Below, piece by piece: positions 1,587 to 24,175 of a stretch of 64,000 nucleotides of DNA. Source of the stretch: an uncultured bacterium. GTDB taxonomy: Bacteria > Patescibacteriota > Minisyncoccia > Phycocordibacterales > PALSA-1337. Numbering within the stretch: position 1 is the stretch's first letter; each line of letters starts with the position of its first letter. The DNA lies in the NCBI GenBank assembly GCA_963701025.1, contig OY969557.1, forward strand, positions 640,090-704,089. The letters run 5' to 3'. The translations under genes and the position numbers were made by a program. Below the pieces are notes generated by a model that saw only the letters and a program-made list of their open reading frames with translations, was not told the origin of the DNA and ran no database searches.

Positions 1587-1590
1587 GGCC

Positions 1591-2154: not shown

Positions 2155-2159
2155 TTCAC

Positions 2160-3546: not shown

Positions 3547-3586
3547 CGTTTTTGCGCTTGTCCATAGACTAGCGTATATTCAAGGC

Positions 3587-4402: not shown

Positions 4403-4410
4403 TTTTTGAT

Positions 4411-5718: not shown

Positions 5719-5850
5719 CCTTAACTTTATAGGCTAGCCCGACACAATCTAAGTGTTGGGCTTTTTCTTTACATCCCGCCCAAAGAATGCTTAAATAAAC
5801 CCCCTACGACGCGGCATCAGCCAGCTGGCGGATGCCGCGCCTAACCATTC

Positions 5851-8078: not shown

Positions 8079-8327
8079 ATGATTCAAGACTTTCTTACAT
8101 CGAACCTCAACAAGGCTGTCTATGAGATGATAGACGGCGATAAGCGGTTTTACGGAGAGATAAAGAGTTTGCGCGGCGTATGGGCTGTCGGTAAAACCCT
8201 TGAAGAATGCCGTCTCAATCTTATGACTGCAATAGAAAGCTGGCTTGTGTTTCGTCTGAAAAGGAATCTGGCGATACCTAATTTCAAAATCCGTGGCAAA
8301 CAACTGCCAGTGAGTAAATATGCCTAG
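8079..8327 (+). CDS. hicB: HicB-family (UPF0150) antitoxin-like protein
   Basis: FYGEIKSLRGVWAVGKTLEECRLNLMTAIESWL matches the HicB N-terminal RNase H-like fold signature (F.A.IPELPGC...G.TLEEA..N..EAI..WL). No C-terminal DNA-binding domain. Confidence 0.6.
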   Translation: MIQDFLTSNLNKAVYEMIDGDKRFYGEIKSLRGVWAVGKTLEECRLNLMTAIESWLVFRLKRNLAIPNFKIRGKQLPVSKYA

Positions 8328-8541
8328 ATTGTACGCAGTTTCTTGGGGAACTTTTGTCAAGAAGATGAGATTTTTGGGTTGGAGCGGTCCAAGTCAGGAA
8401 GGTAGGCATCCAGTGATGGCGAGGGGTGATGTGTCGGTGATAATACCCAACCCTCATCGAAAAGATATCGGTATAGATTTGCTAGTTAGGATATTAAGAC
8501 GGGCGGGAATATCTAGAGGTGAGTGGTTGGGGGGAAAATAG
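8320..8541 (+). CDS. hicA: HicA-family mRNA interferase toxin-like protein
   Basis: KKMRFLGWSGP...GRHPVMARGD.SVIIPNPHRKDIGIDLLVRILRRAGIS follows the HicA dsRBD-like pattern (L...GW.....GSHH.F.HP......VP.H..KDL..G.L..IL.QAGL). Overlaps hicB by 8 nt, so the two are translationally coupled. Confidence 0.55.
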   Translation: MPRLYAVSWGTFVKKMRFLGWSGPSQEGRHPVMARGDVSVIIPNPHRKDIGIDLLVRILRRAGISRGEWLGGK

Positions 8542-8570
8542 ATCAGATGCGATAGTATTTCCTTCCTCGC

Positions 8571-9545: not shown

Positions 9546-9873
9546 GCTCTTATAGTATCACGGCCTTCGACTTTCCGGCGCGTCCTTTTCCTTGACTGCG
9601 CCGTCGTTTTCGCCTACCATCAAGCCAGTTTCGGTTCCTCACCCGTGTTGCGGCCTGAAGGAGGAAATACTTGGACTACCTACTTGTGAAGTCTTTTTCC
9701 CCAAGATAAGCACTTCAAAAAAGGTCGTACACAAACAAGGCCGCAGCACTTCAATTTCGAGTCCGATCTCAAATCAAAGGCGCTCCCAGTCGAGCGCCTT
9801 TTCTCATGGCGCGTTCCAGCGGCACGCATAAATCTTGATTATTCATCGGCTCCGTGATAAGCTCACCCTCACC

Positions 9874-10359
9874 ATGGCAACCAAAGTCGTCTCTCCCGTC
9901 AACGTCGAACACCGCGCCGCGCTGGACATCCGTCCCGGCGATACGGTCCGCGTCTGGCAAAAAGTCCAGGAAGACAAGGGCAAATTCCGCCTGCAGGCCT
10001 TCGAGGGCCTAGTCCTCGCCAGGAAGCACGGCCGCGAAGCCGGCGGCACTTTCACCGTGCGCAAAGTCATCGACGGCATCGGCGTCGAGCGCATCTTCCC
10101 CCTGTATTCGCCCATGATCGACGAGGTCGAGATGGTGCGCCGTTCCAAGGTCCGCCGGGCCAAGCTTTATTTCGTCCGCCGCAAAGCCGCCAAGGAGATC
10201 CGGCACCAGATGCGCCGCATCATGGCGGCAAAGTACGAAGAGGAGGCTCCGCCAGCTGGCGGACCAGCGGTCGCGAGTGTTGTTCCTACTGCCGCTCCGG
10301 CTGACGCTTCCGCCGCGGTCATTGCGGAGGCGCCCAAAGCCGAGACTACGAAAAAATAA
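9874..10359 (+). CDS. rplS: 50S ribosomal protein L19 with Ala/Pro-rich C-terminal extension
   Basis: [26 protein letters not shown]....FTVRK...[27 protein letters not shown] is the L19 signature. Start set at MATKVV; the ORF track starts 39 nt earlier. Confidence 0.85.
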
Positions 10360-10398
10360 CGATATCTGCTATAGTTCACGAGTACTTTGCGAATGAAC

Positions 10399-10482
10399 GC
10401 GCGGGTGGCGAAACTGGTAGACGTTTACGCTTGAGGTGCGTAAGCCCTTACGGGCGTGGAGGTTCGATTCCTCTCCCGCGCA
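10399..10482 (+). tRNA. tRNA-Leu (anticodon GAG), long variable arm
   Basis: Acceptor GCGCGGG/CCCGCGC, D-arm TGGCGAAACTGGTAGACG, anticodon stem TACGC/GCGTA with loop TTGAGGT, extra arm, T-arm GGAGG-TTCGATT-CCTCT. Confidence 0.8.
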
Positions 10483-10575
10483 CATGTGATTCTGGCTCCC
10501 ATACTCCGCTTCGCTCCGTTTGGGAGCTTCGCTCGGACTGAAAGTCCAAACGAGCTTGTCCTTTCATCCTCGCTC

Positions 10576-10646
10576 GCTCCCATAGTTTAATGGATAGAAC
10601 GCGAGCCTCCGAAGTTCGCGGTCCAGGTTCGATTCCTGGTGGGAGC
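10576..10646 (+). tRNA. tRNA-Arg (anticodon CCG), copy 1
   Basis: GCTCCCA TA GTTT AATGGATA GAAC G CGAGC CTCCGAA GTTCG CGGTC CAGG TTCGATT CCTGG TGGGAGC A. Confidence 0.8.
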
Positions 10647-10758
10647 ACATGTGATTCTGGCTCCCATACTCCGCTTCGCTCCCATACTCCGCTTCGCTCC
10701 GTTTGGGAGCTTCGCTCGGACTGAAAGTCCAAACGAGCTTGTCCTTTCATCCTCGCTC

Positions 10759-10830
10759 GCTCCCATAGTTTAATGGATAGAACACGAGCCTCCGAAGTTC
10801 GCGGTCCAGGTTCGATTCCTGGTGGGAGCA
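10759..10830 (+). tRNA. tRNA-Arg (anticodon CCG), copy 2 (one substitution in D-arm/position 26)
   Basis: Same cloverleaf as copy 1 with GAACACGAGCC in place of GAACGCGAGCC. Preceded by a duplicated spacer. Confidence 0.8.
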
Positions 10831-11100
10831 CAAATTCGCGAAAAACTCGGAATCGCCCGAAAAAGGCGAAAGCACATCACAATGCGGAGGGCGGGGCGGC
10901 ATTCCTCCCCAGACCCCTCCTGCCGCCCCGCCCGCTTCATTGTTGGCGTTTTTGGGGATTTCGGACACGAAGGCGAAGGGTGCACGAGGCGAAAAAACGA
11001 GGGCGCGGTCGCGGAGGAGTGGGTTCGAACCGACCTTTTGGAAAAATTCCCGAATTTTCATCTGATCATCGCTCCTCGCCAAAATACCGGCTTGTTTACA
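10831..11100. repeat. GC-rich structured repeat, module P1, copy A (abuts 3' end of tRNA-Arg)
   Basis: About 95% identical to the reverse complement of 13893-14100. Contains a long imperfect hairpin GCGGAGGGCGGGGCGGCA-loop-TGCCGCCCCGCCCGC. The 10773..11117 and 10822..11109 ORFs inside it are treated as spurious. Confidence 0.6.
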
Positions 11101-11171
11101 GTCGTTTAGGAAGTTGACTACCGGTTCGAACCGACTCGACGAGACGCGTCCGAAAGCTACCAATTTGTCTT

Positions 11172-12387
11172 TCAAAATCTGCTTTTCGGTAGACGAGCTT
11201 GTTTTTGGTAGTCTTGATATTCTTCCAGCGTCAAAGCGTTCTCAAGATAAGCGGTCATAAGTTTGTCGAGCTTGGCATCAACAGCCGTGACTTCAGCATT
11301 CACTTTTTGAATTTGGTCTTTTGAGGAATTGTTGTCTTCAGCTTTCTCTTTCTCAACCTCGGCAATGAGCCAATCGGCCACAGCATCAGACAACGATACT
11401 TTCTCCAGTTCCGTTTTGATCATATCGGTCATAGCCTCCTCGCGGACATACTTTTGCGAGCATGGTCCCTTCCTTTTGGTACATCGCAAGTAGTTATGGC
11501 CTTTCTGCGTCTCGGCGGTGATGGAACAGCCGCATTCGCCGCACTTGAATAGTCCGCGATATACATACGGTTTCAAACCACCACCGTGCTGAGGTTTGCT
11601 TTTTCTGCGTCATCATCTCCTGGCAAGTGTCAAAAAGCTTCTTCGTGATGATAGGCTCATGCTTACCTTCGTAAAACTCGCCGCCCACGTACATGAGTCC
11701 ATGGTACAGGGTATTTTTGAGAAGAGATTGATAGTTGGAAATGGAAAGCTCTTTTCCCGTATGGCTTCTTAAGCCAAGAGTGCCCATGACCTTCTTCAAT
11801 CCAGAGAGGGTGTAGTTGCCGGAGCCGTATGCTTCAAACATTTTCCTAATAAGCGGAGCTCTATCAGGATCGACAATGATCGATTTGCTTTTCTTGTCCC
11901 ACAGATATCCCATCGGAGCTTTATGCGGCCAGATGCCATTCTTCAATTTCTGACGATAACTGCGTTTGATATTCTCCGAGAGGTTGTCGACAAAATATTT
12001 ACTCTGGCCGAAGGCAATGGAGAGCATGAATTTGCCCTGCGGAGTTGCATCAAACCAGAATGTCGGGAACTTGAGATCCGTAATCATGCCGGTATCCACG
12101 AGATATATCACCTTACCTCCATCAACCGAGTTGCGAGCTAAACGATCTGGATGCCATGCGAGGATACCAGAAGCCTCACCGGCCTCTATACGCTCCAACA
12201 TCTCCGCGAATACAGGCCTGCCCGGTACTTTCGCCGTTTGTTTCTCGACGAAAATATCAACGACCTCCAGTTGCTCTTTTTTGGCGAGCTCGCGCAGCTC
12301 GGAGAGCTGGTCGGCAAGCGATCTCACTTGCCGATCCTCGGTGTCGGTAGACTTTCTGGTATAAATAAAATATTTTTTCTCACTCAT
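11172..12387 (-). pseudogene. large serine recombinase (resolvase catalytic domain, recombinase domain, zinc ribbon, coiled-coil), interrupted by a frameshift
   Basis: ORF 11494..12387 has the N-terminal YTRKSTD..Q..SL..Q resolvase motif with catalytic Ser plus a recombinase domain. ORF 11172..11576 has the zinc ribbon (KPYVYRGLFKCGECGCS...YLRC) and a coiled-coil. The frames switch at an A5 run (cagaaaaagc, about 11590-11600). Confidence 0.75.
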
Positions 12388-12481
12388 GGATACATTTTAC
12401 CATTTTTCAGTGAAGTCAAGAAAAGTTCATAAGAAGGGGATAGAAATACATTCATACGAATTTTCGTTGACTACTTGACAC

Positions 12482-13000
12482 ATGACCATATTTGATATAG
12501 TTTCTAAATCAGAAAGGATTAGAATTATGAAAAATCGAATTGTAGTGACTGTTCTTCACGACATGGCTGGCAGTTTGTATGAGCAGGGTTGGCGGAATGG
12601 CCTATTTAGGCCGATCGCTCATATGTCGCTTGGGTATGGCTCGGATGGATGCAAAGACACGGAGGTGGATTTCGCCGAATCAATCACATTCCTTGTGGAA
12701 GCTGTCAACGATGAAAAATCGCGAGTATTGGTTCTTGGAACCTGTCCGCGGACCATTACATCATCATGGATCAAAGCTGCTGAATTGGTTATCAAGGGGA
12801 GCGACGTCAAAACAGTCGTTATACCCATTGCCAAGCTTCTTAACAGGGACATGAGCAACCCGATGATTGACGGCTCGATCATCTTTGTTGATAAGTCAGG
12901 CATTTTCAGGATCGAAAAGCCCGGCCATATGTTAGCAAATGATTTTGTCGAGGTATTCTCTCAGAGTGCCAGACTCTTCAATCAACAAGTGTCTGGATAA
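12482..13000 (+). CDS. hypothetical protein (moderately low GC)
   Basis: 172 aa ORF with no recognisable motifs. Followed by an intrinsic terminator. Confidence 0.4.
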   Translation: MTIFDIVSKSERIRIMKNRIVVTVLHDMAGSLYEQGWRNGLFRPIAHMSLGYGSDGCKDTEVDFAESITFLVEAVNDEKSRVLVLGTCPRTITSSWIKAAELVIKGSDVKTVVIPIAKLLNRDMSNPMIDGSIIFVDKSGIFRIEKPGHMLANDFVEVFSQSARLFNQQVSG

Positions 13001-13020
13001 TACACTTTCTCAAATCACAA

Positions 13021-13049
13021 AGGTCCGGTCATCATACCCGGCCTTTTTT
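13021..13049 (+). terminator. Rho-independent terminator after 12482..13000
   Basis: GGTCCGG tcatcatac CCGGCC followed by TTTTTT. Confidence 0.5.
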
Positions 13050-13051
13050 AA

Positions 13052-13635
13052 TTCCAAGGAAACCCCGCATGAGGAAGACGCATGGCTTCCGAAATGCGGG
13101 GATGAATTGGTCCATCTGCGTATCGCCTCCGGAGGAGGCGACATGGTACGCTAAAGGTTCCATGAGGACCCGAAGCTTAAACCACTCGGTATATCAGACT
13201 CAATATCACATTGTCTGGGGCACGAAGTATCGCAGGAAGTACCTGAAGGACTATGTAAACACCGAATTCAGGCTGGCCTGCTGGGAAGTAGTGAAGAAAT
13301 ATCCCACGCTCTTCATACATACGGTAAACACGGACAACGATCATATCCACCTCCAGATCGAGATACCACCGAATATGTCTGTGGCTGCCGTCGTCAAGGC
13401 ACTTAAGATCGAATCGAGCGTGAGGCTCAAGAAACGATTCAAATTCATCAGGGAGATGTACATCGACGGCAGCATCTGGAGCGTGGGGTATTTTGTCTCC
13501 ACCATCGGCCTAAACGAAACTCAAATCAAGAATTACATACAATACCAAGGCAAGAAGGACCTCGGCCACACCCTCCGCATACGCTTCGGGTCCTCGTGAC
13601 CCTAAAAGGAAACCCCGCATGAAATGCGGGGAGGA
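13052..13635 (+). mobile_element. IS200/IS605-family insertion sequence (tnpA only), with subterminal hairpins
   Basis: Left end AAGGAAACCCCGCATG...CATGCGGGG is a compound hairpin (13063-13101). Right end AAGGAAACCCCGCATGAAATGCGGGG is a perfect 8-bp hairpin (13613-13631). Both ends share the AAGGAAACCCCGCATG sequence and bracket a Y1 transposase gene. Confidence 0.65.
13162..13599 (+). CDS. tnpA: IS200/IS605-family transposase TnpA (HUH Y1 transposase)
   Basis: YHIVWGTKYRRKYL, the HUH motif DHIHLQIEIPP, and the SIWSVGYFVSTIG region with catalytic Tyr. About 145 aa, typical TnpA size. Confidence 0.8.
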   Translation: MRTRSLNHSVYQTQYHIVWGTKYRRKYLKDYVNTEFRLACWEVVKKYPTLFIHTVNTDNDHIHLQIEIPPNMSVAAVVKALKIESSVRLKKRFKFIREMYIDGSIWSVGYFVSTIGLNETQIKNYIQYQGKKDLGHTLRIRFGSS

Positions 13636-13649
13636 GGTCATTATACTTA

Positions 13650-14300
13650 AAATTATTTCATAACACACGTACCGCCGAGAAGCGGTCGACTTCCGCTTCT
13701 CCTCACGGACTTTTGTTCGCGCCCGGCGGATGTCGGTGCGGCGGAGCACCCCACGGTCGCCCAAAAGCGACGGTGGAAGGTGCGAGAGCCGTACGGACAG
13801 ACGCTCCGGGCGCGCCACAGGCTCTGTGGAAGCGGAAGTGGGCCGCTTCGAGCCACTGCGATGATTGCGATCTGCGTTTGCGATGAAAGATAAATAAGCC
13901 GGTGAGAATCCGACTCCTCCGCGACCGCGCCCTCGTTTTTTCGCCTCGTGCACCCTTCGCCTTCGTTCCGGAAATCCCCAAAAACGCCAACAAGGATGCG
14001 GGCGGGGCGGCAGGAGGGGTCTGGGGAGGAATGCCGCCCCGCCCTCCGCATTGTGATTTGCTTTCGTCTTTTTCGGGCGATTCCGAGTTTTTCGCGAATT
14101 TGTGCCGATTCCTGAACAAAGTTCGAACCTTTTTCGCCGAAAATCCGACATGAATGGTTGCGCCTTCGCTCTGCTCGGCGCGGTGAAAGGGCGGACGGAG
14201 GACTGGGGGTGTGGGGGAAGGACTCCGTCCGCCCTTCCTCTTCGTTTTCGCGCGCCGCCGTGCCGGTTTTTTCGGGCGGGGGCGCTGAAATCTTATCCAC
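13650..14300. repeat. composite GC-rich structured repeat, copy B (modules H + P1 + P2)
   Basis: H module at 13677-13852 is bounded by hairpins GAGAAGCGG-TCGACTT-CCGCTTCTC and GAAGCGG-AAGTGGG-CCGCTTC. P1 at 13893-14100 matches the reverse complement of 10831-11060. P2 at 14100-14290 contains the perfect 12-bp hairpin GGGCGGACGGAG...CTCCGTCCGCCC and matches the reverse complement of 23171-23395. Three overlapping minus-strand ORFs in all three frames are taken as GC artefacts. Confidence 0.6.
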
Positions 14301-14383
14301 ATATAAGGAAATTGACATTTAGATAAGGATACGCTACCCTTACTAATATGGTATGTATTTACATACAGAATTAATTTATCACT

Positions 14384-14602
14384 ATGAATCAAGATCAAAA
14401 AAGAGAACGATTTAAACGCTTAGGAGTACAGCGTACGAACGCTGTTTTACAGAAGCTAAAAGTGCTTGGCAATTGTTCGAATAGAAGCGCTTATAACTAT
14501 ACCGAGGAAGAAATCAATAAAATCTTTTTAGAGGTTGAACGCCGGGTTCGTGAGACCAAAGCAAAATTCCACTTTCCTAAGAATAAAGAATTTAAACTAT
14601 GA
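14384..14602 (+). CDS. small basic protein, translationally coupled to downstream GHKL ATPase
   Basis: 72 aa and Lys/Arg-rich. Its stop overlaps the next ATG (ATGA). Begins a sharply low-GC islet immediately after the GC-rich repeat. Confidence 0.45.
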   Translation: MNQDQKRERFKRLGVQRTNAVLQKLKVLGNCSNRSAYNYTEEEINKIFLEVERRVRETKAKFHFPKNKEFKL

Positions 14603-16965
14603 AAAATGAGGATATTAAGAATCTTGCTCTTGCATTAGTTAAGGCAGATACAGAGAAAGAGGTTGTTAAAGTCTTAAAAGATTTTTATCTTTGGGATGAC
14701 CAAAAATCTTGGAAGGAAGTTGATCAAAGCGCAGGAAACTGGTCAACAATCGGGAACCAACAAAGTGCGCCCGACACTGCACTTGTCGAGAAGATAATTA
14801 ATTCGGTCGATGCAGTATTAACACGGGAATGTCTAAGGGAAGGCATAGACCCCAAAAGTGACGCGGCACCTAAAAGTATCGTAGAAGCTCAAAAAAGATA
14901 TTTTGGAATCCATAACGGAAAACTTTCTAGTATTGATGCCAATATGAGAGCGAGTATCGCGGAGAATATTTTTCTTGTCGCTACTGGCGATAAGACAAAT
15001 CCCTCCTACTCAATAATTGACTTAGGAGAAGGTCAATCACCGGAGTCTTTTTCTGATACCTTTCTGTCTCTGAATAGAGGAAATAAAAGTAATGTTCAAT
15101 TTGTACAAGGAAAGTTCGGAATGGGCGGTACGGGAGTTTTCAGATTTGGCAGTCCGGAACATAACCTTCAATTAATAATTTCTAAAAAAGATCCCTCTAT
15201 TAAGTTTGGTAAGAAAAGCGAACAATGGGGGATGACCGTCATTAGACGTATTCCTCCGACTGGACAAATGCGAAGTTCAATTTTTACATATCTTGCTCCA
15301 AATAACAGCGTTCTCTCTTTTACTGCACAATCCCTACCTCTTTTGCCGGGAAAACACCCCAATGCTTACTCGAATCAGCTTTCGTGGGGGTCATTTATAA
15401 AGATCTATGAGTATGATCTCGTCGGCCTTAAAAGTAACGTACGATTTGATTTGTTTTATCGTCTATCATTGCTTTTGCCAAATATAGCTTTACCAATAAC
15501 TCTTTGTGAGCGAAGAGATTATAACGACAAAGATGGTAAAACGAGGGATATGAAGATTACCATGTCTGGATTAAGTGTTCGTCTTGACGAAGACAAAAGA
15601 GATAATCTTGAAGAGGATTTTCCCAGCACAGGTGAATTAAGTGTAAAAGGTCAGAGAATGGATTATTCAATATATGCTTTTAAAAAAGATCGCAGGAGGA
15701 CTTATTCAGGAAATGAAGGCGTTGTGTTTACTGTAAATGGTCAGGCTCATGGCTTTTTACCAAAAACATTTTTTGAACGCAAGGCAGTTGGCATGTCGTA
15801 TCTTTCCGATAGCATCCTTATTCTCATTGACTGTTCGAAGATTGACAGAAGAAGACAGGAAGATTTATTTATGAACAGCCGTGATCGTCTTAGCGGCGGA
15901 CCACTTCAAAGTGAAATTGAACAGCAATTAGAGGAAATCATTAAAAATCACCAAGGCCTCCGGGCATTAAGAGAGAAGAGACGCAGAGAAGATATTGAGA
16001 ATAAATTACAAGATTCAAGACCGTTGGCGGAAGTTCTCGAAAACATAATAAAGAAATCTCCATCTCTATCAAGTCTATTTACGCAAGGAGTAAGGATAAA
16101 AAATCCTTTCAATCTTGCCGGTGCAACGGAAAATGGGAAGTTTAAGAGTAAAAAATTCCCGACTTATTTTGAGCTGACGAAGAAATATCCAGCTGAAAAA
16201 CCAAAATCATGCCCTATTAACAACAGGAAGTTTCGTATTCAATTTGAGACTGATGCGGAGAATGATTATTTCAATCGAGATAAAGAGCCGGGTGGTATAA
16301 CTGTTAAGATAAACGGGGGCACTATTGAAGACTATTCGCTTAATCTATGGAATGGATTGGCAACTCTGAATATTGAGATTCCCAATACGGTAAAAATTGG
16401 GGATATTCTCTGTTTTTCAACAGAAGTAATAGATCATACACGAGTAGAGCCATTTTCTAACGAATTTTGTATAAAAATTGAAGAATCTCAAAAAGACGGG
16501 GAAGGAAAAAATGGTGATAGGAAAAAATCTTCAGGAAAGAAATCTGGCGAGGGAAGGAAAAAGCCCACATATCTTGATATTCCGAATGCTTGGGAAGTAC
16601 GTAGAAATGAATGGGACAAGCACAGCTTTGATGACAAGAGTGCTTTGAAGGTTGTAGATGCGGGGGAAGAGTCCGGGTACGATTTTTATATCAACATGGA
16701 TAATGTCTACCTCCAGATGGAAATCAAGGAGAATATAAAGGTTGACCCCAAGCTTCTGGAAGCAAGATTTAAGTATGGAATGGTTTTGCTAGGTATCTCG
16801 CTACTTGATTTTGAAGAGAAGAATAAGAAAACAGAAAGTCAATCCTCAAGAGAAAATGATAACATGTCAATCTTTGATAAAATTTTACTTTTTTCGAGAG
16901 CAATTTCCCCGACACTGCTCCCGATGATTGCCTCACTTGGAGATTTACAGCTAGGAACAGAGTAG
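14599..16965 (+). CDS. large GHKL/Bergerat-fold ATPase (Hsp90/MORC/sacsin-like HATPase) with long uncharacterised C-terminal region
   Basis: N-box VEKIINSVDAVL (E..N..DA), G1 box IIDLGEGQS (D.G.G), G2 box GKFGMGGTGVF. 788 aa with a Lys-rich low-complexity segment near residue 640. Low-GC islet. Confidence 0.6.
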   Translation: MKNEDIKNLALALVKADTEKEVVKVLKDFYLWDDQKSWKEVDQSAGNWSTIGNQQSAPDTALVEKIINSVDAVLTRECLREGIDPKSDAAPKSIVEAQKRYFGIHNGKLSSIDANMRASIAENIFLVATGDKTNPSYSIIDLGEGQSPESFSDTFLSLNRGNKSNVQFVQGKFGMGGTGVFRFGSPEHNLQLIISKKDPSIKFGKKSEQWGMTVIRRIPPTGQMRSSIFTYLAPNNSVLSFTAQSLPLLPGKHPNAYSNQLSWGSFIKIYEYDLVGLKSNVRFDLFYRLSLLLPNIALPITLCERRDYNDKDGKTRDMKITMSGLSVRLDEDKRDNLEEDFPSTGELSVKGQRMDYSIYAFKKDRRRTYSGNEGVVFTVNGQAHGFLPKTFFERKAVGMSYLSDSILILIDCSKIDRRRQEDLFMNSRDRLSGGPLQSEIEQQLEEIIKNHQGLRALREKRRREDIENKLQDSRPLAEVLENIIKKSPSLSSLFTQGVRIKNPFNLAGATENGKFKSKKFPTYFELTKKYPAEKPKSCPINNRKFRIQFETDAENDYFNRDKEPGGITVKINGGTIEDYSLNLWNGLATLNIEIPNTVKIGDILCFSTEVIDHTRVEPFSNEFCIKIEESQKDGEGKNGDRKKSSGKKSGEGRKKPTYLDIPNAWEVRRNEWDKHSFDDKSALKVVDAGEESGYDFYINMDNVYLQMEIKENIKVDPKLLEARFKYGMVLLGISLLDFEEKNKKTESQSSRENDNMSIFDKILLFSRAISPTLLPMIASLGDLQLGTE

Positions 16966-17029
16966 CCAGAAATGTTGATAAAAGAAAACAGAACAGGTTT
17001 GATATGATAAAATTACACTCTGTCGAATT

Positions 17030-17791
17030 ATGCAAAAACTTTTCATCAAAAACCGTAAGGACCAGAAAATCGCCGTCGTCATAGATCAGCCCGCCAAAGC
17101 GCGTGGTATGGCTTTCGTGACCCACGGTCTGGGCGGATTCAAGGAACAGGCCCACATCCGAACCATGGCGCAAGCTTTTCTCGATAACGGCTATACCGTG
17201 GTGACATTCGATACCACGAATACATTCGGCGAAAGCGACGGAAGCTATGACGATGCCACCGTAACCAATTATTCTGAAGATCTCGAGGATGTCGTAGCTT
17301 GGTCAAAAAGCCAACCGTGGTACATGGAACCATTCTGTCTGGCCGGACACAGCCTGGGTGCCATTTCTGTCGCCCTGTATGCCCAGAAATATCCGAAGCT
17401 CGTCAAAGGCCTGGCTCCAATCTCCACGGTAGTATCAGGCAAATTAAGCATGGACAGGGAGAAAGATTTCGATGGTTGGAAGAAAAAGGGGTATCAAGAA
17501 AAGATCAGTAACTCAAAGCCTGGTCTTGTCGGCAAGCTCAAGTGGTCGCATATGGAAGATCGGCTCAAATATGATCTCTTGCCAAAAGCAAATCTCCTGA
17601 CCATGCCGGTCTTGATGATAGTCGGCTCAGAAGATGTGCCTACGCCAGTGCGTCATCAGCAAATACTCTACGACGCATTGCCTGGCAGGAAAGAGATGTA
17701 TGTCATAGAAGGATCGCCGCATACATTCAGAGATGAGAAGCATCTGAAGCAGGTGTACCAACATTTTGATAAGTGGATTAAGACTTTATAA
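17030..17791 (+). CDS. alpha/beta-fold hydrolase (dienelactone hydrolase / S9-like)
   Basis: HGLGG oxyanion region, nucleophile elbow GHSLG, late acidic residue (GSEDVP) and His (SPHTF) in canonical order. Confidence 0.75.
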   Translation: MQKLFIKNRKDQKIAVVIDQPAKARGMAFVTHGLGGFKEQAHIRTMAQAFLDNGYTVVTFDTTNTFGESDGSYDDATVTNYSEDLEDVVAWSKSQPWYMEPFCLAGHSLGAISVALYAQKYPKLVKGLAPISTVVSGKLSMDREKDFDGWKKKGYQEKISNSKPGLVGKLKWSHMEDRLKYDLLPKANLLTMPVLMIVGSEDVPTPVRHQQILYDALPGRKEMYVIEGSPHTFRDEKHLKQVYQHFDKWIKTL

Positions 17792-17800
17792 TTTAACCAT

Positions 17801-18337
17801 ATGTCCATCACTCTTATTTTTGAAGCTCACGGCACTACATTCGATAACGAAGCACATTTGTCTTCGGGCTGGAATGATGTGGCGTTGTCGCCGCTTGGAG
17901 AGAAGCAGTCAAAAGAGATGGGCGAACGCTACAAGGAAGATCATTTCGATGCTATTTTCTGCTCTGACCTACAGCGCGCCTATCACTCAGCCGAGATCGC
18001 TTTTGGTGATAAGTTTCCAATCATACAAGATAAGCGCTTACGTGAATGCGACTATGGCGACTTTACACAAAAGCCGAGTGAAATCGTAGATGCGGAAAAA
18101 CCAAAGCACATCACGGTGCCATTTCCTCGCGGTGAAAGTTATATACGGACTACACACCGAATGGGGTTATTTATCGATCACTTGAAGAAAAATTATGACG
18201 GTAAACGCGTCATGGTCATCGGCCATCGCGCTACACAGTATGGCATTGAAAACATCGTAAACGGCGTGCCGCTCGAACAGCTTGTTACCACGCATTTCAA
18301 GTGGCAGCCGGGGTGGAAATATGAGCTAAACAAATAA
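17801..18337 (+). CDS. histidine phosphatase (phosphoglycerate mutase-like) family protein
   Basis: N-terminal AHGTT..N (RHG-like motif with Arg replaced by Ala), ..G..D..LS..G..Q, DAIFCSDLQRAYHSAEI, and a later VMVIGHRATQ. Overall PGM-fold architecture. Confidence 0.55.
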   Translation: MSITLIFEAHGTTFDNEAHLSSGWNDVALSPLGEKQSKEMGERYKEDHFDAIFCSDLQRAYHSAEIAFGDKFPIIQDKRLRECDYGDFTQKPSEIVDAEKPKHITVPFPRGESYIRTTHRMGLFIDHLKKNYDGKRVMVIGHRATQYGIENIVNGVPLEQLVTTHFKWQPGWKYELNK

Positions 18338-18339
18338 TT

Positions 18340-18777
18340 ATGAAAAATTGTGTATATTGCACATTGCCGGAAATACAAGCCAGAAGAGTTACAGAGAACA
18401 AACTCGCTGTAGCTTTTCCGACTAATATTCCGATAACTCCTGGACACATGCTTATCATTCCGAAAAGATGCGTTGCACGCTATGAAGATTTAACAAGCGA
18501 TGAGAAAAATGCAATCGAGGAACTCCGAATGAAGATCGTTGGTGCTCTGAAGAAGGTATTTGGCGCGGAGGGTTTTAATTTTGCATGGAATGATGGCAAA
18601 CTTGCAGGTCAATCCATTCCGCATTTTCATTTACATATAATCCAGAGAAAACACGGTGATACAGGTATTCTTGAATATGAGCCAAGGAAGTTTATCTACA
18701 GACCAGGTGAACGAGAGACTTCTCCAGAGGAGGAACTGCTTGCGATAAGTGAGCTAGTCAAAAAGGAGATAAAGTAA
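18340..18777 (+). CDS. HIT (histidine triad) family protein
   Basis: Histidine triad HFHLHII plus the upstream P..PGH.L.IPKR motif. Confidence 0.85.
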   Translation: MKNCVYCTLPEIQARRVTENKLAVAFPTNIPITPGHMLIIPKRCVARYEDLTSDEKNAIEELRMKIVGALKKVFGAEGFNFAWNDGKLAGQSIPHFHLHIIQRKHGDTGILEYEPRKFIYRPGERETSPEEELLAISELVKKEIK

Positions 18778-18791
18778 AAATCTTAAAATAT

Positions 18792-19505
18792 ATGCAAATC
18801 GAATCAAAACAACAAATTCTCGCTCGACGGAAAGAGCTTGAGCAAGAGATCGTGGAGATGCTCGAAGAAACCGAGAGCAATTTCGAGCTTGCCGACGTGC
18901 TCGATGCCATATACGAGGAAGAGGAGAACGACGATATGACGAAGATCATAGCCATGTTCGACAATGGCGACATGAGCCAATTGAGCAATGTCCTTGAACT
19001 GGTTACCGATGCCTGGAATTATTTCCCCCATAAAGCTCTGGGCGGGATATCCCCGTCGGAGAAATCATTGGAATACGCAGAGAAGCATCCGACGAAGACA
19101 AAAAGCAAGAAAGGAGTGGATACCATGCCTCGCGTTTGCGTCGGCAACAGGGAGATGTCATGGGACGAGCATCAAGCCATGCTCAAGGAAATGGCAAGGG
19201 CTCAGGAACCATTCAAGAAGTGGATTTCTGGTGTGCTCGCGGATTACCGGTCGTTCTTGAAGCAGGAGAGATTGTCAGCCAAGATGGTTGATAAGCATTA
19301 CTTCATCGCCGAGACATTTTTCGACAGGGTTCTGTGGCTGGGCTGGGTGAATTTCGGAAGCATCAGAAAGGAATTCACTAGCGATGAGTTTCCAAAGTGG
19401 TGGAAGACGCATGTAGTCGCTTCTGGGATTGATGATTCGAAAGAAGTTAAAAATTCCGTGCGTAAACTGGTTGATTTTATAGAGGCTAAATATGTTGTTA
19501 AGTAG
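18792..19505 (+). CDS. hypothetical protein (acidic N-terminal coiled region)
   Basis: 237 aa ORF with good coding periodicity and no recognisable motif. Confidence 0.45.
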   Translation: MQIESKQQILARRKELEQEIVEMLEETESNFELADVLDAIYEEEENDDMTKIIAMFDNGDMSQLSNVLELVTDAWNYFPHKALGGISPSEKSLEYAEKHPTKTKSKKGVDTMPRVCVGNREMSWDEHQAMLKEMARAQEPFKKWISGVLADYRSFLKQERLSAKMVDKHYFIAETFFDRVLWLGWVNFGSIRKEFTSDEFPKWWKTHVVASGIDDSKEVKNSVRKLVDFIEAKYVVK

Positions 19506-19538
19506 CCGAAGTTGCCATAACTATCGTATAATAAATTT

Positions 19539-20183
19539 ATGAGCACCAACATCGATTATTGGGAAAAAGTCTTGGAAAATCCGACGCCTGACTTCAAGGC
19601 TCTTTTCGACGCGGAATTGACTTACATTCGGTCGCGCGTTCCGGGGAATTCCAAAGTTCTCGAGATCGGTTGCGGTAATGGCAGGAATATCAGGTCTATC
19701 GCCGAATTCACGAAGGACATCATCGGAATCGACAACGATCCGAAAGCGGTCGAAGACGCACAGAAGAACCTCGCCGGATTTTCAGGCGTAAAGATAATGC
19801 TGGCCGACGTTCTCGATCTGCCGTTCCCAGATAAATCTTTTGACGTCATGATATTCTTGGATACTCTGGTCAACATGAAAGAAAACAAAGTCCAAGCATT
19901 GAAGGAGATGAGCAGGGTGTTGACGGATGACGGCAAAATAATCATCAGCGTATATTCCGAGGACGCTTTCGATGCGCGCATGGACATTTACAAGATAGTG
20001 AATGCTCCCATAAACAAGACCGAAGGCACGAAAGTCACGTTCGACGAAAGTCTTGCGGCGAATGTATCGGAGCAGTTTAGCAAAGAAGATATAGAAGGTT
20101 TGGCCGATCAGTCTGGATTGAATCTTGTCGATTGTAAAAAAGTGCCAGGAATCGCGTATATTTGTACGCTAGCCAAAAAATAA
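19539..20183 (+). CDS. class I SAM-dependent methyltransferase
   Basis: Motif I VLEIGCGNGRN, motif II acidic IDNDP, motif post-I/III FDVMIF. 214 aa. Confidence 0.8.
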   Translation: MSTNIDYWEKVLENPTPDFKALFDAELTYIRSRVPGNSKVLEIGCGNGRNIRSIAEFTKDIIGIDNDPKAVEDAQKNLAGFSGVKIMLADVLDLPFPDKSFDVMIFLDTLVNMKENKVQALKEMSRVLTDDGKIIISVYSEDAFDARMDIYKIVNAPINKTEGTKVTFDESLAANVSEQFSKEDIEGLADQSGLNLVDCKKVPGIAYICTLAKK

Positions 20184-20246
20184 AACCCGCCTACGGTTAG
20201 AACGTAGTGCGGGTCGTGAATTTGCGTATTACTTCTGGGAACATGA

Positions 20247-20537
20247 TTATCCCCCAAGCTCACTTGCGGTCGGAATGCGCACCGGGAAGGCACATCCGCC
20301 CGGATTATCGCAGACCTTCTCGAAGTTATCGAAGGCAGCCTGCGATTTCGGACCAAGTTTGGTTCGTGCTGGTTTATTGAGTTTTTCGAGATCAGCGCCG
20401 AATTCCTCGATGATCGCCTTTCGCACCTGCTTGAAGCTTTCATTCAGGGCTGTTCGGCGTTCGGCCGTGTAGCCGAACATCATGCTCGAATATTGCTCCT
20501 GGTTTAATTTGATGCAGACGTCGCCTAAGGTAGACAT
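20247..20537 (-). CDS. hypothetical small protein, downstream of membrane transporter gene in same orientation
   Basis: 96 aa ORF, 28 nt after the stop of 20566..20973 on the same strand. Confidence 0.35.
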   Translation of the reverse strand: MSTLGDVCIKLNQEQYSSMMFGYTAERRTALNESFKQVRKAIIEEFGADLEKLNKPARTKLGPKSQAAFDNFEKVCDNPGGCAFPVRIPTASELGG

Positions 20538-20565
20538 AATTTTCTTTTTGTTTTTGGTTGCTTGT

Positions 20566-20973
20566 TTACCGTGTCAGTAATATCGCCGCGGTGAAAGCCA
20601 TGACGAAACCGATGATTTTTGAAGGACTCATACCTCCATTCATGATGGCATAATTCATCGCCGGTATAGTCGTCTGAACGACGATCATAATAACGAACAA
20701 CATGCCAACATTTTCTTTGGTAGCTTTCGCAAGCATACCATTGAAGAACAAAACACCAATAGCTCCAGCAATCCCGGCAGCCGCGACCATTTTCCAATTG
20801 ATTCCATCCATGCTTTTCAATCCGCCAAGAGCGAAAGGAAGGACACAGACAAAGACGATTAGAGAAAAAAAGGCCGATGATACATTTCCCGTCATTTTGC
20901 TCCGATTCATGAAGAGCGGCCATAGTCCAAAGAACACTCCGGCTAGGGCAGCTTTAATTTGCAAACTATTCAT
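20566..20973 (-). CDS. EamA-like / DMT-superfamily half-transporter (4 TM)
   Basis: 135 aa with four hydrophobic helices, Gly-rich TM segments, and DMT/EamA-like spacing. Confidence 0.55.
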   Translation of the reverse strand: MNSLQIKAALAGVFFGLWPLFMNRSKMTGNVSSAFFSLIVFVCVLPFALGGLKSMDGINWKMVAAAGIAGAIGVLFFNGMLAKATKENVGMLFVIMIVVQTTIPAMNYAIMNGGMSPSKIIGFVMAFTAAILLTR

Positions 20974-21010
20974 ATTATTTCCTTGGTTAAGGGTTTGTTG
21001 TCAAAGTTCA

Positions 21011-21076
21011 AACTCTCAGGATTCGCGACATCAGTGTCGTAAACCCAGTTAAGTGGGGAATATTGCTATTCCCCAT
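21011..21076 (-). promoter_or_regulatory. conserved structured 5' leader element, copy 1 (upstream of 20566..20973)
   Basis: Minus-strand transcript: hairpin GGGGAAUAGCAAUAUUCCCC, then CUUAACUGGGUUUACGACACUGAUGUCGCGAAUCCUGAGAGUU. Shares the core with copy 2 at 21577-21650. Confidence 0.45.
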
Positions 21077-21120
21077 GAGCGGTGTTTTGGTAGCCACTTC
21101 ACTACCGCCGGCAGTCAAGA

Positions 21121-21537
21121 CTAACCGGACTTATTCATGATGTAACTCTCGTCAGCCGCCGCATTGAGCTCGTAGGGAGTGTCGAAGAAGAAATCTCCTA
21201 GCTTCTGTCCCTTGACCCAGATTTGGCGTTGCCACGGTTGCTTCTGCACCAAGGCCTTCTCCTGTTCGATGATTCCTTCGTCGAGCGTTGTTTCCTGGTG
21301 ACCGACGATGCGGACGAACCGGAACAGCTTCTTCTCCTTGCCCCAAGGGTCCGGTATTCCGGCTTCCTCGGGAGCGATAATGTAGATGAAGTATTTGGCG
21401 CTCGGCTCGGTGGGTTTGTTTTCCCACCAAGGAACGTCTTGTTCTCCGGCTACACGGATCAGGAGTTGTTTGTTCTGGGCAGTTTGTTGCTTGTCCATTC
21501 CGCGACCATGCGCTCTGATGATTGGCAATCGATTCAT
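21121..21537 (-). CDS. hypothetical protein
   Basis: 138 aa ORF, same strand as and immediately upstream of the EamA-like gene. Each has its own copy of the conserved leader. Confidence 0.45.
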   Translation of the reverse strand: MNRLPIIRAHGRGMDKQQTAQNKQLLIRVAGEQDVPWWENKPTEPSAKYFIYIIAPEEAGIPDPWGKEKKLFRFVRIVGHQETTLDEGIIEQEKALVQKQPWQRQIWVKGQKLGDFFFDTPYELNAAADESYIMNKSG

Positions 21538-21576
21538 TGGTATCTCCTATGGTTGAATTGTTGACTCAAAGAACTG

Positions 21577-21650
21577 AACTCTCAGGATTCGCGACTGAAG
21601 TGTCGTAAATCCAGTTGAGTCGGGAAACGCTGTTTTGAGGCGTTTCCCGA
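21577..21650 (-). promoter_or_regulatory. conserved structured 5' leader element, copy 2 (upstream of 21121..21537)
   Basis: Minus-strand transcript: hairpin UCGGGAAACGC-CUCAAAACA-GCGUUUCCCGA, then CUCAACUGGAUUUACGACACUUCAGUCGCGAAUCCUGAGAGUU. The inner stem CGAC/GUCG has compensatory loop changes relative to copy 1. Confidence 0.45.
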
Positions 21651-21671
21651 TTGAAGCTTACACATCAGCGA

Positions 21672-22067
21672 TCACTTCCGGATGGCGAGTATCGCCCGAT
21701 CATTGTATTCCGATTGGCCGACGGTGGTGGTCGAGTTGGCATGCCATGCTTGGACAAGCCTGACCATCGTGCCGTTGGTTATCGTGTTGTCCGTCGTCAC
21801 CGCGTAGCGAGCATAGCTGTTCGCGTCGGTGGCTTTCGGCGACATGACCCGGACGAGGCTCACACCCTTGCTGTTGGTGATGACCAATGTCACCATCCAA
21901 TCGCCTTCGTCTTTGATGCTCGCGCTCATGGATGCAATATTGTCTTCGGATGTGAATCCGGCCGGTAACGGCGTTCTCGCGCCGACGACTACCGCATAGA
22001 TGACGGCACCGATGACGATATTGATAAGGACGAGCACTACTGCGACTCTAATCATTTCACGTTTCAT
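21672..22067 (-). CDS. hypothetical exported/signal-anchored protein
   Basis: N-terminal hydrophobic helix (IRVAVVLVLINIVIGAVIYAVVV), 131 aa. Confidence 0.45.
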   Translation of the reverse strand: MKREMIRVAVVLVLINIVIGAVIYAVVVGARTPLPAGFTSEDNIASMSASIKDEGDWMVTLVITNSKGVSLVRVMSPKATDANSYARYAVTTDNTITNGTMVRLVQAWHANSTTTVGQSEYNDRAILAIRK

Positions 22068-22373
22068 AGTTTTTCTCCATTTGATTGTTTACTGCAGTTG
22101 CGATTCCCTAAGTTAAATTGTTTGCCTAAATGGGGAACCGATTTCTACAGTAAACAGAAGTGATTACCTTTTAAAGAGCTTACCTGTTAAGTATAGCATA
22201 CCACAACATAAAAGTCAATAGCTGTCCAATTTTCTAGTGGCTCTACCAAGCCATGGAAATAGACCGAATCTAAGCCAAATTAAAGAGTTTGTGGCTCACC
22301 GGAATCAGTCTGTGGCTCAATCCAACCGTTTGAGGCACAAGGATTTAAACGCTGACAGTGATAGAATGACTAA

Positions 22374-22964
22374 ATGGACGATGAAAACACTCAAAATGTG
22401 CCAGCTCCAGAACCGTCTACGCCTGGGCCTGAACCTGCTCCGGAGGAGTCTGTTGCAGCAATAATTCCTGAACCAGTGACACCTTCAGAGCAATCAGCGG
22501 CTGAAAGTACTTCTGTTGACCCGGTGGCGCAGGCGGAGCCTGTGACTGAACCAGTGCCAATCACTGAACCAACATCTGATCAAGAATCAACTCCTGTGTC
22601 CGCGCCGGCGGCACAAACGCCGACGGAGCCGTGGACGCAATCGCCGGCGCAATCGCCACAAGCTCCGATATCTGCGCCGTCAACGCCAGTAGTACCTCAA
22701 ACTCCACCAACTTTCACTCAATCAACTCAATTTCGTGACATCCAAGCTCATGGACGCATTAAAATCCAAGAGCACAGACAGAATAAGTTAGAAAAGATCA
22801 TCGAATATGCGCAGAAGAAGCAAACCATCACCAACGACGAAGTCCAGAAGCTCGTGCGCGTCTCCGACGCTACAGCCACCAGATATTTGGTCGATTTAGT
22901 AAAGCAAGGTCGTCTGGTCCGTGAAGGATCCCCGCGACATGCGATATATCGATTTGTGCGCTGA
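22374..22964 (+). CDS. Pro/Thr/Glu-rich low-complexity protein with C-terminal winged-helix DNA-binding domain
   Basis: First 120 aa are PEPxP/T-rich. The last 60 aa (ITNDEVQKLVRVSDATATRYLVDLVKQGRLVREG) resemble a wHTH. Flanked on both sides by GTGGCTCAATCCAACCG-ATTGAGCCAC hairpin motifs. Confidence 0.5.
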   Translation: MDDENTQNVPAPEPSTPGPEPAPEESVAAIIPEPVTPSEQSAAESTSVDPVAQAEPVTEPVPITEPTSDQESTPVSAPAAQTPTEPWTQSPAQSPQAPISAPSTPVVPQTPPTFTQSTQFRDIQAHGRIKIQEHRQNKLEKIIEYAQKKQTITNDEVQKLVRVSDATATRYLVDLVKQGRLVREGSPRHAIYRFVR

Positions 22965-23009
22965 TTAGGTCTTGTGGCTCAATCCAACCGATTGAGCCAC
23001 AGTGATCTT

Positions 23010-23400
23010 GAGAAGCGGTCGACTTCCGCTTCTTCCGTCAATCGTTATTCGCGTCCGGCGGAACGTCGGTGCGGCGGAATGCAATGAAGCCGCACGGACT
23101 GACGCAAGGACGCGCCACAGAACTCTCTGAAGCGGAAGTGGGCCGCTTCGACTATGTGACGATTGTGATTATGCTATGATTTCCATATCGAACCCGCCCC
23201 CGCCCGAAAAAACCGGCACGGCGGCGCGCGAAAACGAAGAGGAAGGGCGGACGGAGTCCTTCCCCCACACCCCCAGTCCTCCGTCCGCCCTTTCACCGCG
23301 CCGAGCAGAGCGAAGGCGCAACCATTCATGTCGGATTTTCGGCGAAAAAGGTTCGAACTTTGTTCAGGAATCGGCACAAGTATTTGTGAGCTATAATCAG
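23010..23400. repeat. composite GC-rich structured repeat, copy C (modules H + inverted P2)
   Basis: H module at 23010-23151 has the same terminal hairpins and conserved core CGCGYCCGGCGGA..GTCGGTGCGGCGGA as copy B. Region 23171-23395 is the reverse complement of P2 (14100-14290) at about 98% identity. It overlaps the 5' part of ORF 23176..23658 as annotated. Confidence 0.6.
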
Positions 23401-23403
23401 GCC

Positions 23404-23962
23404 ATGCTCTATACCCGCAAAGGCGACTCCGGCACGACCAAGGATTTTAAATCCGGTCCTGGCGTGCGCAAATCGAAAAGCTCCTGTCAGACGGAAGCTC
23501 TTGGCGCACTGGACGAGCTCAATTCTTTTTTAGGCTTGGTGAAAGTAAAGTGCGCGGAAATTCCCCGGACTATAAGCGGTAAAAAGTTCAGCGATATCGT
23601 CTTTCTGGGCGCAAAATTGCCTCTTCTCCATTCAGGCGGAGATAGCCGGAGCCGATAAGAGGGTGGGGCAGGCGAAAGTCACGGAAATGGAAGGTTGGAT
23701 CGACGCGGCGGAAAAGGAACTGCCACCGATCAAGACATTCTTCATATCAGGCGGCACTGAATTGGCAGCGCTCTTCGATATCTCCCGCACCTTGGCCCGC
23801 GCGGCCGAGCGCCGCGTCGTGGCCGGCACCGACAGCGGCGAGCTTTCGGTCGACCCCGCCACTCTCGCGTTCATGAACCGCCTATCTTCGCTGTTCTACG
23901 CCCTGGCTCGACTAACTAACCACAAATCTGGTATAACTGAACAGCCGCCGACGTATCAGTAG
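23404..23962 (+). pseudogene. PduO-type ATP:cob(I)alamin adenosyltransferase, apparent +1 frameshift
   Basis: N-terminal YTRKGDSGTT...EALGALDELNSFLGL (PduO/MMAB signature) is in frame 1, from 23404. C-terminal MEGWIDAAEKELPPIKTFFISGG...LARAAERRVV...NRLSSLFYALAR is in frame 2 (23663..23962). The switch lies near 23580-23600, next to an A5 run. Confidence 0.7.
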
Positions 23963-23981
23963 ATCACGGCGGCTACAATAT

Positions 23982-24053
23982 GGTGACTATAGTTTAGTGG
24001 CAAAACTCCTCTCTGTGGCAGAGGCGTCGCGAGTCCGATTCTCGCTAGTCACC
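23982..24053 (+). tRNA. tRNA-His (anticodon GTG) with encoded G-1
   Basis: G-1 then GTGACTA TA GTTT AGTGGCA AAAC T CCTCT CTGTGGC AGAGG ... GCGAG TCCGATT CTCGC TAGTCAC C. Extra 5' G and C73 are the His identity elements. Confidence 0.85.
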
Positions 24054-24175
24054 CAATTCTCGAGTTTAAAATATTCAAATAAAAACGTTAAAAAGAAGCA
24101 TTTTATGCCGTATCTTCACGATTATCCTTGTAAAACAGTGAAAATTGAGCTTTTTATAGCTTATTTCACTGATAT

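Follow-up and report, generated by a model that had tools for sequence, protein, structure and literature searches.

What kind of genetic element underlies a family of GC-rich, hairpin-dense repeats that lies in three copies beside tRNA genes in the genome of an uncultured member of the Patescibacteria? The repeats occur in a stretch of 64,000 nt, hereafter the window (contig OY969557.1, positions 640,090-704,089, assembly GCA_963701025.1), and all coordinates are window positions unless a locus is named. An earlier note, made by reading the sequence, had delimited a region of 10831-23400 containing three repeat modules (H, P1, and P2) in copies A, B, and C, which it likened to a large structured RNA, to a miniature inverted-repeat transposable element (MITE), or to an attachment (att) site. 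That interval coincides with what is, in our judgment, very probably a 12.5-kb integrative island (10834-23379) inserted at a tRNA-Arg gene and belonging to a Patescibacteria-wide family mobilized by a large serine recombinase (LSR). The repeat arms are swapped between three junctions that have only a short core in common, a sequence motif is offset by 5 nt between two types of half-site, the plan of the element is kept throughout the family, and the cargo varies. The recombination chemistry invoked below would be that of known serine integrases, by analogy, and the circular intermediate is likewise inferred.

Repeats were searched for in the window, tRNA genes were called with ARAGORN and Rfam, protein domains were assigned with Pfam, and relatives were mapped by tblastn. 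A first set of relatives comprised the stretches of GTDB genomes that carry the exact 24-nt start of H (n = 13). The survey sample comprised 80 metagenome loci, whose LSRs have 46-93% identity to the query by the fetch table and 49-87% by tblastn, together with two long contigs.

Repeat arms and junctions in the window

The repeat family is real. Inverted repeat I1 (196 nt, 96% identity) corresponds to P1, inverted repeat I2 (185 nt, 100% identity) corresponds to P2, and H is present twice in direct orientation, with identical ends (24 and 23 nt) and a column identity of 77% overall (Table 1). Repeats of such length and identity within 64 kb are far above chance expectation. Copy A adjoins the 3' end of a tRNA-Arg(CCG) gene, as the note had stated. 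Copy B has the described content (H, P1, and P2), but its orientation had to be corrected: relative to copies A and C, it carries the reverse complement of P1 as well as of P2, so that the opposite strand reads as a contiguous P2:P1. P2 does follow H in the opposite orientation, and the orientation of the modules thus differs between copies.

Table 1. Features of the island and its insertion point (window positions).
Feature	Position	Strand	Basis and remarks
tRNA-Leu	10399-10483		tRNA cluster member
tRNA-Arg(CCG), first copy	10576-10648
tRNA-Arg(CCG), second tandem copy	10759-10831	+	ARAGORN, Rfam; adjoins P1
Core GCACAA of site A (predicted attL type, tRNA:P1)	10828-10833	+
P1 arm a	10828-11023	+	Repeat I1; small terminator-like hairpin and GC hairpin (10889-10933) outside, last LSR codons (minus strand) inside
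LSR gene	11024-12387	-	Pfam; tblastn against intact relatives; frame analysis; reading frame runs on into P1
Unknown-function ORF, 157 aa	12528-13000	+	No Pfam match
IS200-type insertion	13041-13645	+	Y1 transposase tnpA 13069-13599 (PF01797, E=3e-30); end hairpins at ~13060 and ~13608
H copy b	13677-13851	+	Rod hairpin (175 nt), divergent from LSR gene; arm b follows after 58 nt
P1 arm b	13910-14105	-	Repeat I1; inverted duplicate of LSR 3' end, hairpin (14000-14044), and core
Core of site B (predicted intact attP type, P2:P1, inverted)	14100-14105	-
P2 arm b	14100-14284	-	Repeat I2; attP-type half-site GGTTCGAAC...GGCACAA; hairpin 14181-14242
Cargo arc	14285-23194		Pfam on window genes
Winged helix-turn-helix (wHTH) protein, 196 aa	22374-22964	+	Pfam; tblastn; homologues before H in 7 other loci
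H copy c	23010-23151	+	Short form without apical stem, 43 nt before P2
P2 arm of site C (predicted attR type, P2:unique flank)	23195-23379	+	Core 23374-23379; hairpin 23237-23298

The three junctions were compared by alignment. Site A reads ...GGTTCGATTCCTGGTGGGAGCACAA/ATTCGCG..., that is, tRNA-Arg followed by P1. Site B, on the reverse strand, reads ...GGTTCGAACTTTGTTCAGGAATCGGCACAA/ATTCGCG..., P2 followed by P1, and site C reads ...GGTTCGAACTTTGTTCAGGAATCGGCACAA/GTATTTGTGAGC..., P2 followed by unique DNA that leads to a gene for a PduO-type adenosyltransferase and then to tRNA-His. Sites A and B (reverse strand) do not differ rightwards from GCACAA, nor do sites B (reverse strand) and C up to it, and this hexamer is the sole sequence common to all three. 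Such a minimal common core, combined with swapped arms, is the signature of site-specific recombination. Judged from the sequences, site A is of the attL type, site C is of the attR type, and site B, which lies a short way upstream of the LSR gene in inverted orientation, is of the attP type. The half-site of attB type is the segment from the T-loop to the 3' end of the second tRNA-Arg(CCG) gene, with GGTTCGA at 10809-10815.

The insertion point itself shows a tandem 183-bp duplication (99%) of spacer and tRNA-Arg(CCG) at 10495-10832. The tRNA-Leu and the first tRNA-Arg genes have a common downstream spacer and a common GCACA 3' end, and look like two further potential targets. Beyond site C, the gene for the PduO-type adenosyltransferase is split into two open reading frames (ORFs; 23404-23658 and 23663-23962).

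The large serine recombinase gene

The serine recombinase reported near the repeats is an LSR with Resolvase (PF00239), Recombinase (PF07508), and Zn-ribbon (Zn_ribbon_recom, PF13408) domains, and residues R11-K12-S13-T14, the catalytic serine included, are invariant in 13 relatives. The window copy contains at least three frameshifts at homopolymer A/T runs (11172-12387). Its reading frame enters P1, where it encodes ...VGSNPLLRDRALVFSPRAPFAF..., a tail whose protein sequence is kept in relatives as little as 68% identical. Coding sequence therefore makes up the inner third of P1, and the right-hand P1 is an inverted duplicate of the 3' end of the gene plus downstream sequence.

Public LSR gene calls in the family (~520-540 aa) are ~100 codons too long, overrunning the conserved C-terminus through the GC hairpin of the att arm into the antisense tRNA. 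In these calls the GC hairpin is translated as AGGAEGG..GGIPPRPP, and the overrun tail of P0003, P0010, P0024, and P0045 contains ...AGGAEGGFQGGIPPRPP...RDLDSNQ.... This tail is most likely an artifact of stop-poor GC-rich sequence and probably a systematic over-call.

Approximately 1.2 kb between the LSR start and H is filled by the 157-aa ORF and the IS200-type insertion, where the closest relative, L012, has 75 nt. The IS200 tnpA gene listed in the earlier note is indeed present, but it is not a part of the system: by comparison with the relatives, which lack it, the IS200 element is a passenger insertion.

Family-wide plan of the islands

The repeats are not confined to the window. The exact 24-nt start of H is found in 13 stretches of other assemblies, all of them metagenome-assembled genomes (MAGs) of the Candidate Phyla Radiation (CPR)/Patescibacteria, with five stretches in a single MAG. 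The unit flank:P1> <LSR H> <P1:<P2 (colons for junctions, arrowheads for orientation) is present in 7 of these 13; on the left it is flanked by tRNA-Gln in L003 and by tRNA-Ser in L006. A protein search yielded thousands of LSR relatives, nearly all of them from Patescibacteria where named. Approximately 60 related CPR loci, with LSR identities of 49-99%, share the plan tRNA:P1> <LSR <P1:<P2 (cargo) P2>:flank, of which the window is a typical member. The core in these loci lies at the tRNA 3' end and is 4-7 nt long.

Inverted arms bracket the LSR gene in 64 of the 70 loci with enough flank; they are 85-207 nt long in nearly all cases and mostly 96-100% identical. One arm starts at or just past the VGSN codons, and the other lies 24-330 nt upstream of the LSR start codon. 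Of 58 loci, 42 have a complete tRNA gene next to the 3' arm (Ser 28, Gln 9, Asn 3, Asp 1, Arg 1), antisense to the LSR in every case, and the arm identity extends into the last 6-8 nt of the tRNA, e.g., CCGCCA, which comprises the acceptor end, the discriminator base, and CCA. The outer flank of the 5' arm is P2-like (GGATTTTC..AAAAAGTTCGAACTTTGTCCAA.A.ACA) in all readable loci except L019. In 29 loci, P2 recurs in inverted orientation 0.9-9 kb further on, with an identity of mostly 95-100%. Where all three junctions are readable (21 loci shown), they have only 4-9 nt in common, usually CCGC(CA).

These data bear on two alternatives. If P1> <LSR <P1 were an autonomous transposon resembling an insertion sequence (IS), with long terminal inverted repeats, the LSR as its transposase, and a palindromic target formed by the tRNA 3' end facing P2, the near-perfect inverted repeats around the LSR in ~60 loci would be accounted for, as would the recombinase frame that ends within one repeat, as in many IS elements. 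However, the target of a transposon would vary, whereas the 5' flank is P2 in all readable loci but L019; P2 has a duplicate of its own at the cargo's far end, and the two flanks have attB-type and attP-type spacing rather than equal spacing. We consider such a transposon very unlikely. A Hin-like invertible switch, in which the LSR flips its own gene or the cargo for phase-variable expression, is suggested by the position of the recombinase gene between inverted copies of its presumed site and by the inverted arms that bracket the cargo too. Among the loci, however, none has a flipped LSR arc (P2 at 3', tRNA at 5'), L019 being a double junction and not a flip, and the small first ORF of the cargo, where seen, is fixed in position and direction relative to site B. 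Moreover, sites A, B, and C are of three types, and such pairings are not recombined by serine integrases (PMC3783163), which makes a switch of this kind highly improbable.

P1, P2, and H occur solely at fixed positions relative to the LSR, tRNA, and wHTH genes in the surveyed loci. Of the two comparisons offered earlier, the att-like one holds for P1 and P2, which meet at the arm-swap junctions, and the MITE one fails on these fixed contexts.

Past P2 at site C, the flank in L040, L041, L073, and L076 is a decayed P1 arm of another LSR clade. This suggests tandem arrays in which the newest element would lie next to the tRNA and older ones behind it, and also that recognition may rest mainly on the tRNA half.

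Searches in other collections were mostly negative. Viral contigs lack the H motif and contain only 3 close LSR relatives, each cut off at a contig end; blastn of 10400-14350 against a phage collection gave a tRNA as the sole match; and an exact-protein look-up found neither of two window proteins on record.

Half-site spacing and proposed mechanism of integration

In serine integrases, the distance of the recognition (ZD) motif from the crossover is greater by 5 bp in attP than in attB (PMC3783163). In the islands, the start of GTTCGAA lies 18 nt from the arm boundary in the tRNA vs. 23 nt in P2. The offset, P2 minus tRNA, is exactly +5 nt in 34 of 38 loci, and in 3 of the 4 exceptions the pattern caught a second TTCGAA in the sequence. 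The offset matches the attP/attB rule and provides an independent comparative confirmation of it.

Two other origins for P2 were considered and rejected. As a decayed 3' half of a tRNA its stems fail to pair on reading the sequence, and P2 was treated as an attP-type half-site; as a paralogue of P1 it scored 54, vs. 29±5 for shuffles with a maximum of 50, which is weak support.

We propose that integration proceeds as follows. An LSR dimer would bind attP, composed of the end of P2, the short core, and the start of P1, and a second dimer would bind attB, the segment from the T-loop to the tRNA gene's 3' end. Both duplexes would be cut in the core (GCACAA in the window, usually CCGC(CA) elsewhere) and their halves exchanged, giving tRNA:P1 as site A (attL) and P2:chromosome as site C (attR) and leaving the tRNA gene intact. 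Before insertion, the uninterrupted attB would have read tRNA-Arg ...GGGAGCACAA joined to GTATTTGTGAGC. Since the halves would be swapped on integration, the repeats seen would be the two attP arms, each present twice, the doubling of each arm being due to a second complete attP (site B) that would be carried, inverted, between the LSR gene and the cargo. The product of excision (A × C) would be a circle with two inverted attP sites lying within inverted repeats of ~380 bp, and these two sites would part the LSR arc from the cargo arc.

Module H and the hairpins of P1 and P2

Both window copies of H are found on one strand, at a distance of 43-58 nt on the 5' side of an att arm, and H ranges from 142 to 176 nt in length; the middle of copy c is shorter than that of copy b and has diverged. 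Copy b folds with -119 kcal/mol (z = -10) on the plus strand vs. -98 kcal/mol on the minus strand. An alignment was made of 15 copies, a biased sample collected with the exact 24-mer of the 5' end as bait. In these copies, 97.7% of the pair cells are standard, 11 pairs are changed on both sides, a level reached by 0 of 500 shuffles, and slid controls drop to 32-47% paired. The same strand folds better in 15 of 15 copies. Each end of H consists of GAAGCGG-N7-CCGCTTC, nearly invariant (the 5' end was the bait), and the two ends can pair mutually or self-fold. The internal loop GGCGGA...GA(A/G)GCC is kept even in the short forms.

A covariance model of H scores 168 bits for copy b and 131 bits for copy c. 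Its matches are limited to the two window copies and four further loci, all from an LSR clade at least 73% identical (fetch table), and they always lie between the LSR start and arm b. In a second context, seen in seven loci, H lies between homologues of the 196-aa wHTH gene, upstream, and a P2-type arm that comes right after it. By its distribution, H is an accessory of one LSR clade and not required by the whole family. The hairpin TGTGGCTCAATCCAACCGATTGAGCCACA is found on both sides of the wHTH gene in the window (22310-22341 and 22971-23002, repeats D16/I3). In L002, L004, L008, and L009, inverted copies of this hairpin bracket H and lengthen the rod.

The compensatory changes and the strand-biased folding support the view that H is a structured single-stranded element of ~175 nt. 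Most likely it functions in single-stranded form, as RNA or DNA, or else as a palindrome to which protein binds; its RNA nature is not proven, because palindromic DNA can also keep "compensatory" changes. Rfam gave no match for H. Two other candidates were dropped: a MITE is ruled out by the fixed contexts, and no target-site duplications were seen at the ends of H; a bridge-RNA-like guide was set aside without a formal test, most family members lacking H.

The named hairpins are present as described: the P1 stem pairs GGGCGGGGCGGCA with TGCCGCCCCGCCC, the P2 stem pairs GGGCGGACGGAG with CTCCGTCCGCCC, and P2 contains the T-loop-like GGTTCGAAC. The 19-nt loop of the P1 GC hairpin, TTCCTCCCCAGACCCCTCC, is a perfect polypyrimidine mirror repeat, CCTCCCC-AGA-CCCCTCC. 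It recurs exactly in elements with LSRs only 58-81% identical to the query, and the hairpin is present in 19 other loci, in P1 for the clade of the window and in P2 for others. The stems around the loop differ and yet stay complementary (GGGCGGGGCGGCA, GGGCAGGGCGACA, CCCGCCCGCA, AGCAAATGGAAAA). The strand complementary to the loop is very G-rich.

The region is GC-rich and dense in hairpins, and stems in H and in the P hairpins have undergone compensatory changes, all of which would be in line with the earlier suggestion of a single large structured noncoding RNA of ~650 nt (H, P1, and P2), similar to GOLLD or ROOL and present in three partial copies. That suggestion does not stand. The order and orientation of H, P1, and P2 vary by copy, P2 following H in the opposite orientation and P1 being found without H; the inner part of P1 is coding and the arm ends coincide with the tRNA 3' end; and most family members have no H at all. 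At the gathering score, Rfam reports only tRNAs, and nothing credible appears even at E<5 over 10300-14400 and 22200-24100. We regard a single large RNA as extremely unlikely, and the description of the locus as an LSR-mobilized island is retained in the following.

Cargo

The cargo in the window comprises two ORFs of 72 aa and 788 aa, genes for an alpha/beta hydrolase, a histidine phosphatase, a HIT protein, and a methyltransferase, small ORFs on the minus strand, and the gene for the wHTH protein. A small ORF is found at the start of 11 of the 21 complete cargos, always ~270 nt from site B and reading away from it. The first small proteins of the cargos form one cluster in 7 loci; the member in L015 overlaps a gene call of the contig with Xre-type HTH Pfam matches, and the same contig has a gene call for Fic. 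Other cargos, judged by sequence without a domain search, contain genes that look like those for a large DNA methyltransferase, a UvrA-like ATPase, and a nucleotidyltransferase. Elements with LSRs that are 90-94% identical have in common only ~500 nt beside site B and 110-190 nt at site C, and the remainder is unrelated. Cargo turnover is therefore fast relative to LSR divergence.

Site B and the weight of the evidence

An intact inverted attP between the LSR gene and the cargo is kept in every integrated element. A hint as to its status comes from L019 (1-2000), the only locus with a tRNA on both sides of the LSR arc: tRNA-Ser(GCT) at 33-123 (plus strand) and tRNA-Ser(TGA) at 1851-1940 (minus strand) are each joined to a P1 arm via CCGCCA, giving an attL-type junction on both sides. 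This is the product expected if site B had also recombined with a tRNA, and it argues that site B is live. Our best guess is that site B is a live attP which belongs to the mobile form, with gene conversion keeping it identical to its partner; candidate roles are double recombination, autoregulation of the LSR, and insulation.

A mobile form with two attP sites could work in one of two ways. The paired inverted attP sites could act together, for instance by recombining doubly with tRNA genes in a manner similar to cassette exchange, as L019 hints, or the arms could fold single-stranded, with H as a strand-specific priming or guide element. We think this rather unlikely; if true, the two-attP or folded-arm form would represent a so far undescribed mode of serine-recombinase mobility. 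In a stricter version, the inverted arms would fold a single-stranded element (DNA or RNA) into one duplex attP stem, like CTX phage or integron attC, and site B would be the unrecombined strand. This would explain why site B is universally present, why the polarity is strict, and why both H hairpins lie on one strand just 5' of each arm. Mismatches between the arms, however, lack a wobble bias, with 130 transversions and transitions of 51 vs. 41 by strand, and neither replication nor HUH genes were seen in the cargo. Serine recombinases cut both DNA strands, and by reasoning from this known mechanism, such cuts on a hairpin would leave the chromosome with hairpin-capped ends. A folded single strand as the substrate thus has very little probability in our view.

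Several points weigh against the integration by the LSR that is preferred here. Mobility is inferred from comparative structure and was not seen, and among 104 loci we found neither an empty attB nor a circular contig or circle junction. The right-hand half-sites (the P1 start and the chromosomal flank) have only weak symmetry with the left-hand ones. The model leaves unexplained why an intact attP is always kept, and why the attP at the 3' end is the recombined one in all loci with a readable 5' flank but one. No conserved promoter was found before H, which leaves an RNA role unproven. Finally, the window may hold a dead LSR copy, or there may be homopolymer errors in the assembly. The LSR frameshifts and the split pduO gene look like long-read homopolymer error rather than decay, and these breaks may be sequencing errors because several related assemblies are long-read MAGs.

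Other features of the window

G+C content is ~55-60% over 1-14000 and 33-45% over most of 24000-64000, and the composition looks mosaic well past the island. Short direct repeats (D5-D12), spaced 440-570 nt apart, are found at 21011-21626, 32818-33414, 43539-44918, 45669-46164, and 53521-54094. They resemble conserved signals that lie upstream or downstream of small paralogous genes in tandem.

Comparison with known systems

A previously unexplained repeat family is now a defined and very common class of mobile islands of Patescibacteria with fast cargo exchange. The literature searched contained no account of this LSR island family, apart from general papers on serine integrases, and as far as could be found both the family and its kept inverted attP are undescribed. 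The islands provide natural attP/attB pairs for dozens of diverse serine integrases directed at tRNA 3' ends, which could serve as orthogonal integration tools. Concrete oddities open to testing are the inverted attP that is always kept, the mirror-repeat loop of 19 nt, and the H rod.

Phage-type serine integrases (A118/LI, Bxb1, phiC31) resemble this system in the three-domain enzyme, in sites with only a short common core, in the attP motif that lies 5 bp farther out (PMC3783163), and in the hybrid attL and attR products. In contrast to these, the target here is the extreme 3' end of several kinds of tRNA, a recognizable motif is present in the left half-sites only, a second intact attP is kept, inverted, beside the recombinase gene, and the arms are conserved over 85-226 nt, far past a 50-bp site; phage genes are absent. 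Hin/Gin segments likewise have the recombinase gene between inverted copies of its site, but here the sites are non-equivalent, no alternative orientation was seen, and the enzyme belongs to the large, not the small, serine recombinases.

The staphylococcal cassette chromosome (SCC) elements are small islands of variable cargo moved by ccr LSRs at the 3' end of rlmH in staphylococci, and they form tandem arrays of live and decayed elements. The islands described here are similar in being small, LSR-moved, and variable in cargo, in their insertion at the 3' end of a conserved gene, and in their tandem arrays. They differ from SCC in having tRNA targets, a single recombinase, long perfect inverted arms, an internal attP, and hosts of a different phylum. 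Islands integrated into tRNA genes by tyrosine integrases usually carry longer segments of tRNA identity. As in tRNA islands including the tycheposons, cargo is found at tRNA 3' ends, the tRNA is regenerated, and the cargo is modular and rapidly exchanged; however, tycheposons have tyrosine integrases in 910 of 937 cases (10.1101/2020.12.28.424599), whereas here the enzyme is a serine recombinase and the junctions have 4-9 nt in common. Taken together, the enzyme and the logic of its sites appear to be those of serine integrases, and the lifestyle resembles that of SCC elements and tRNA islands. What distinguishes this family from the known systems is the target at the tRNA 3' end, the long near-perfect arms, and the inverted attP that is always kept.

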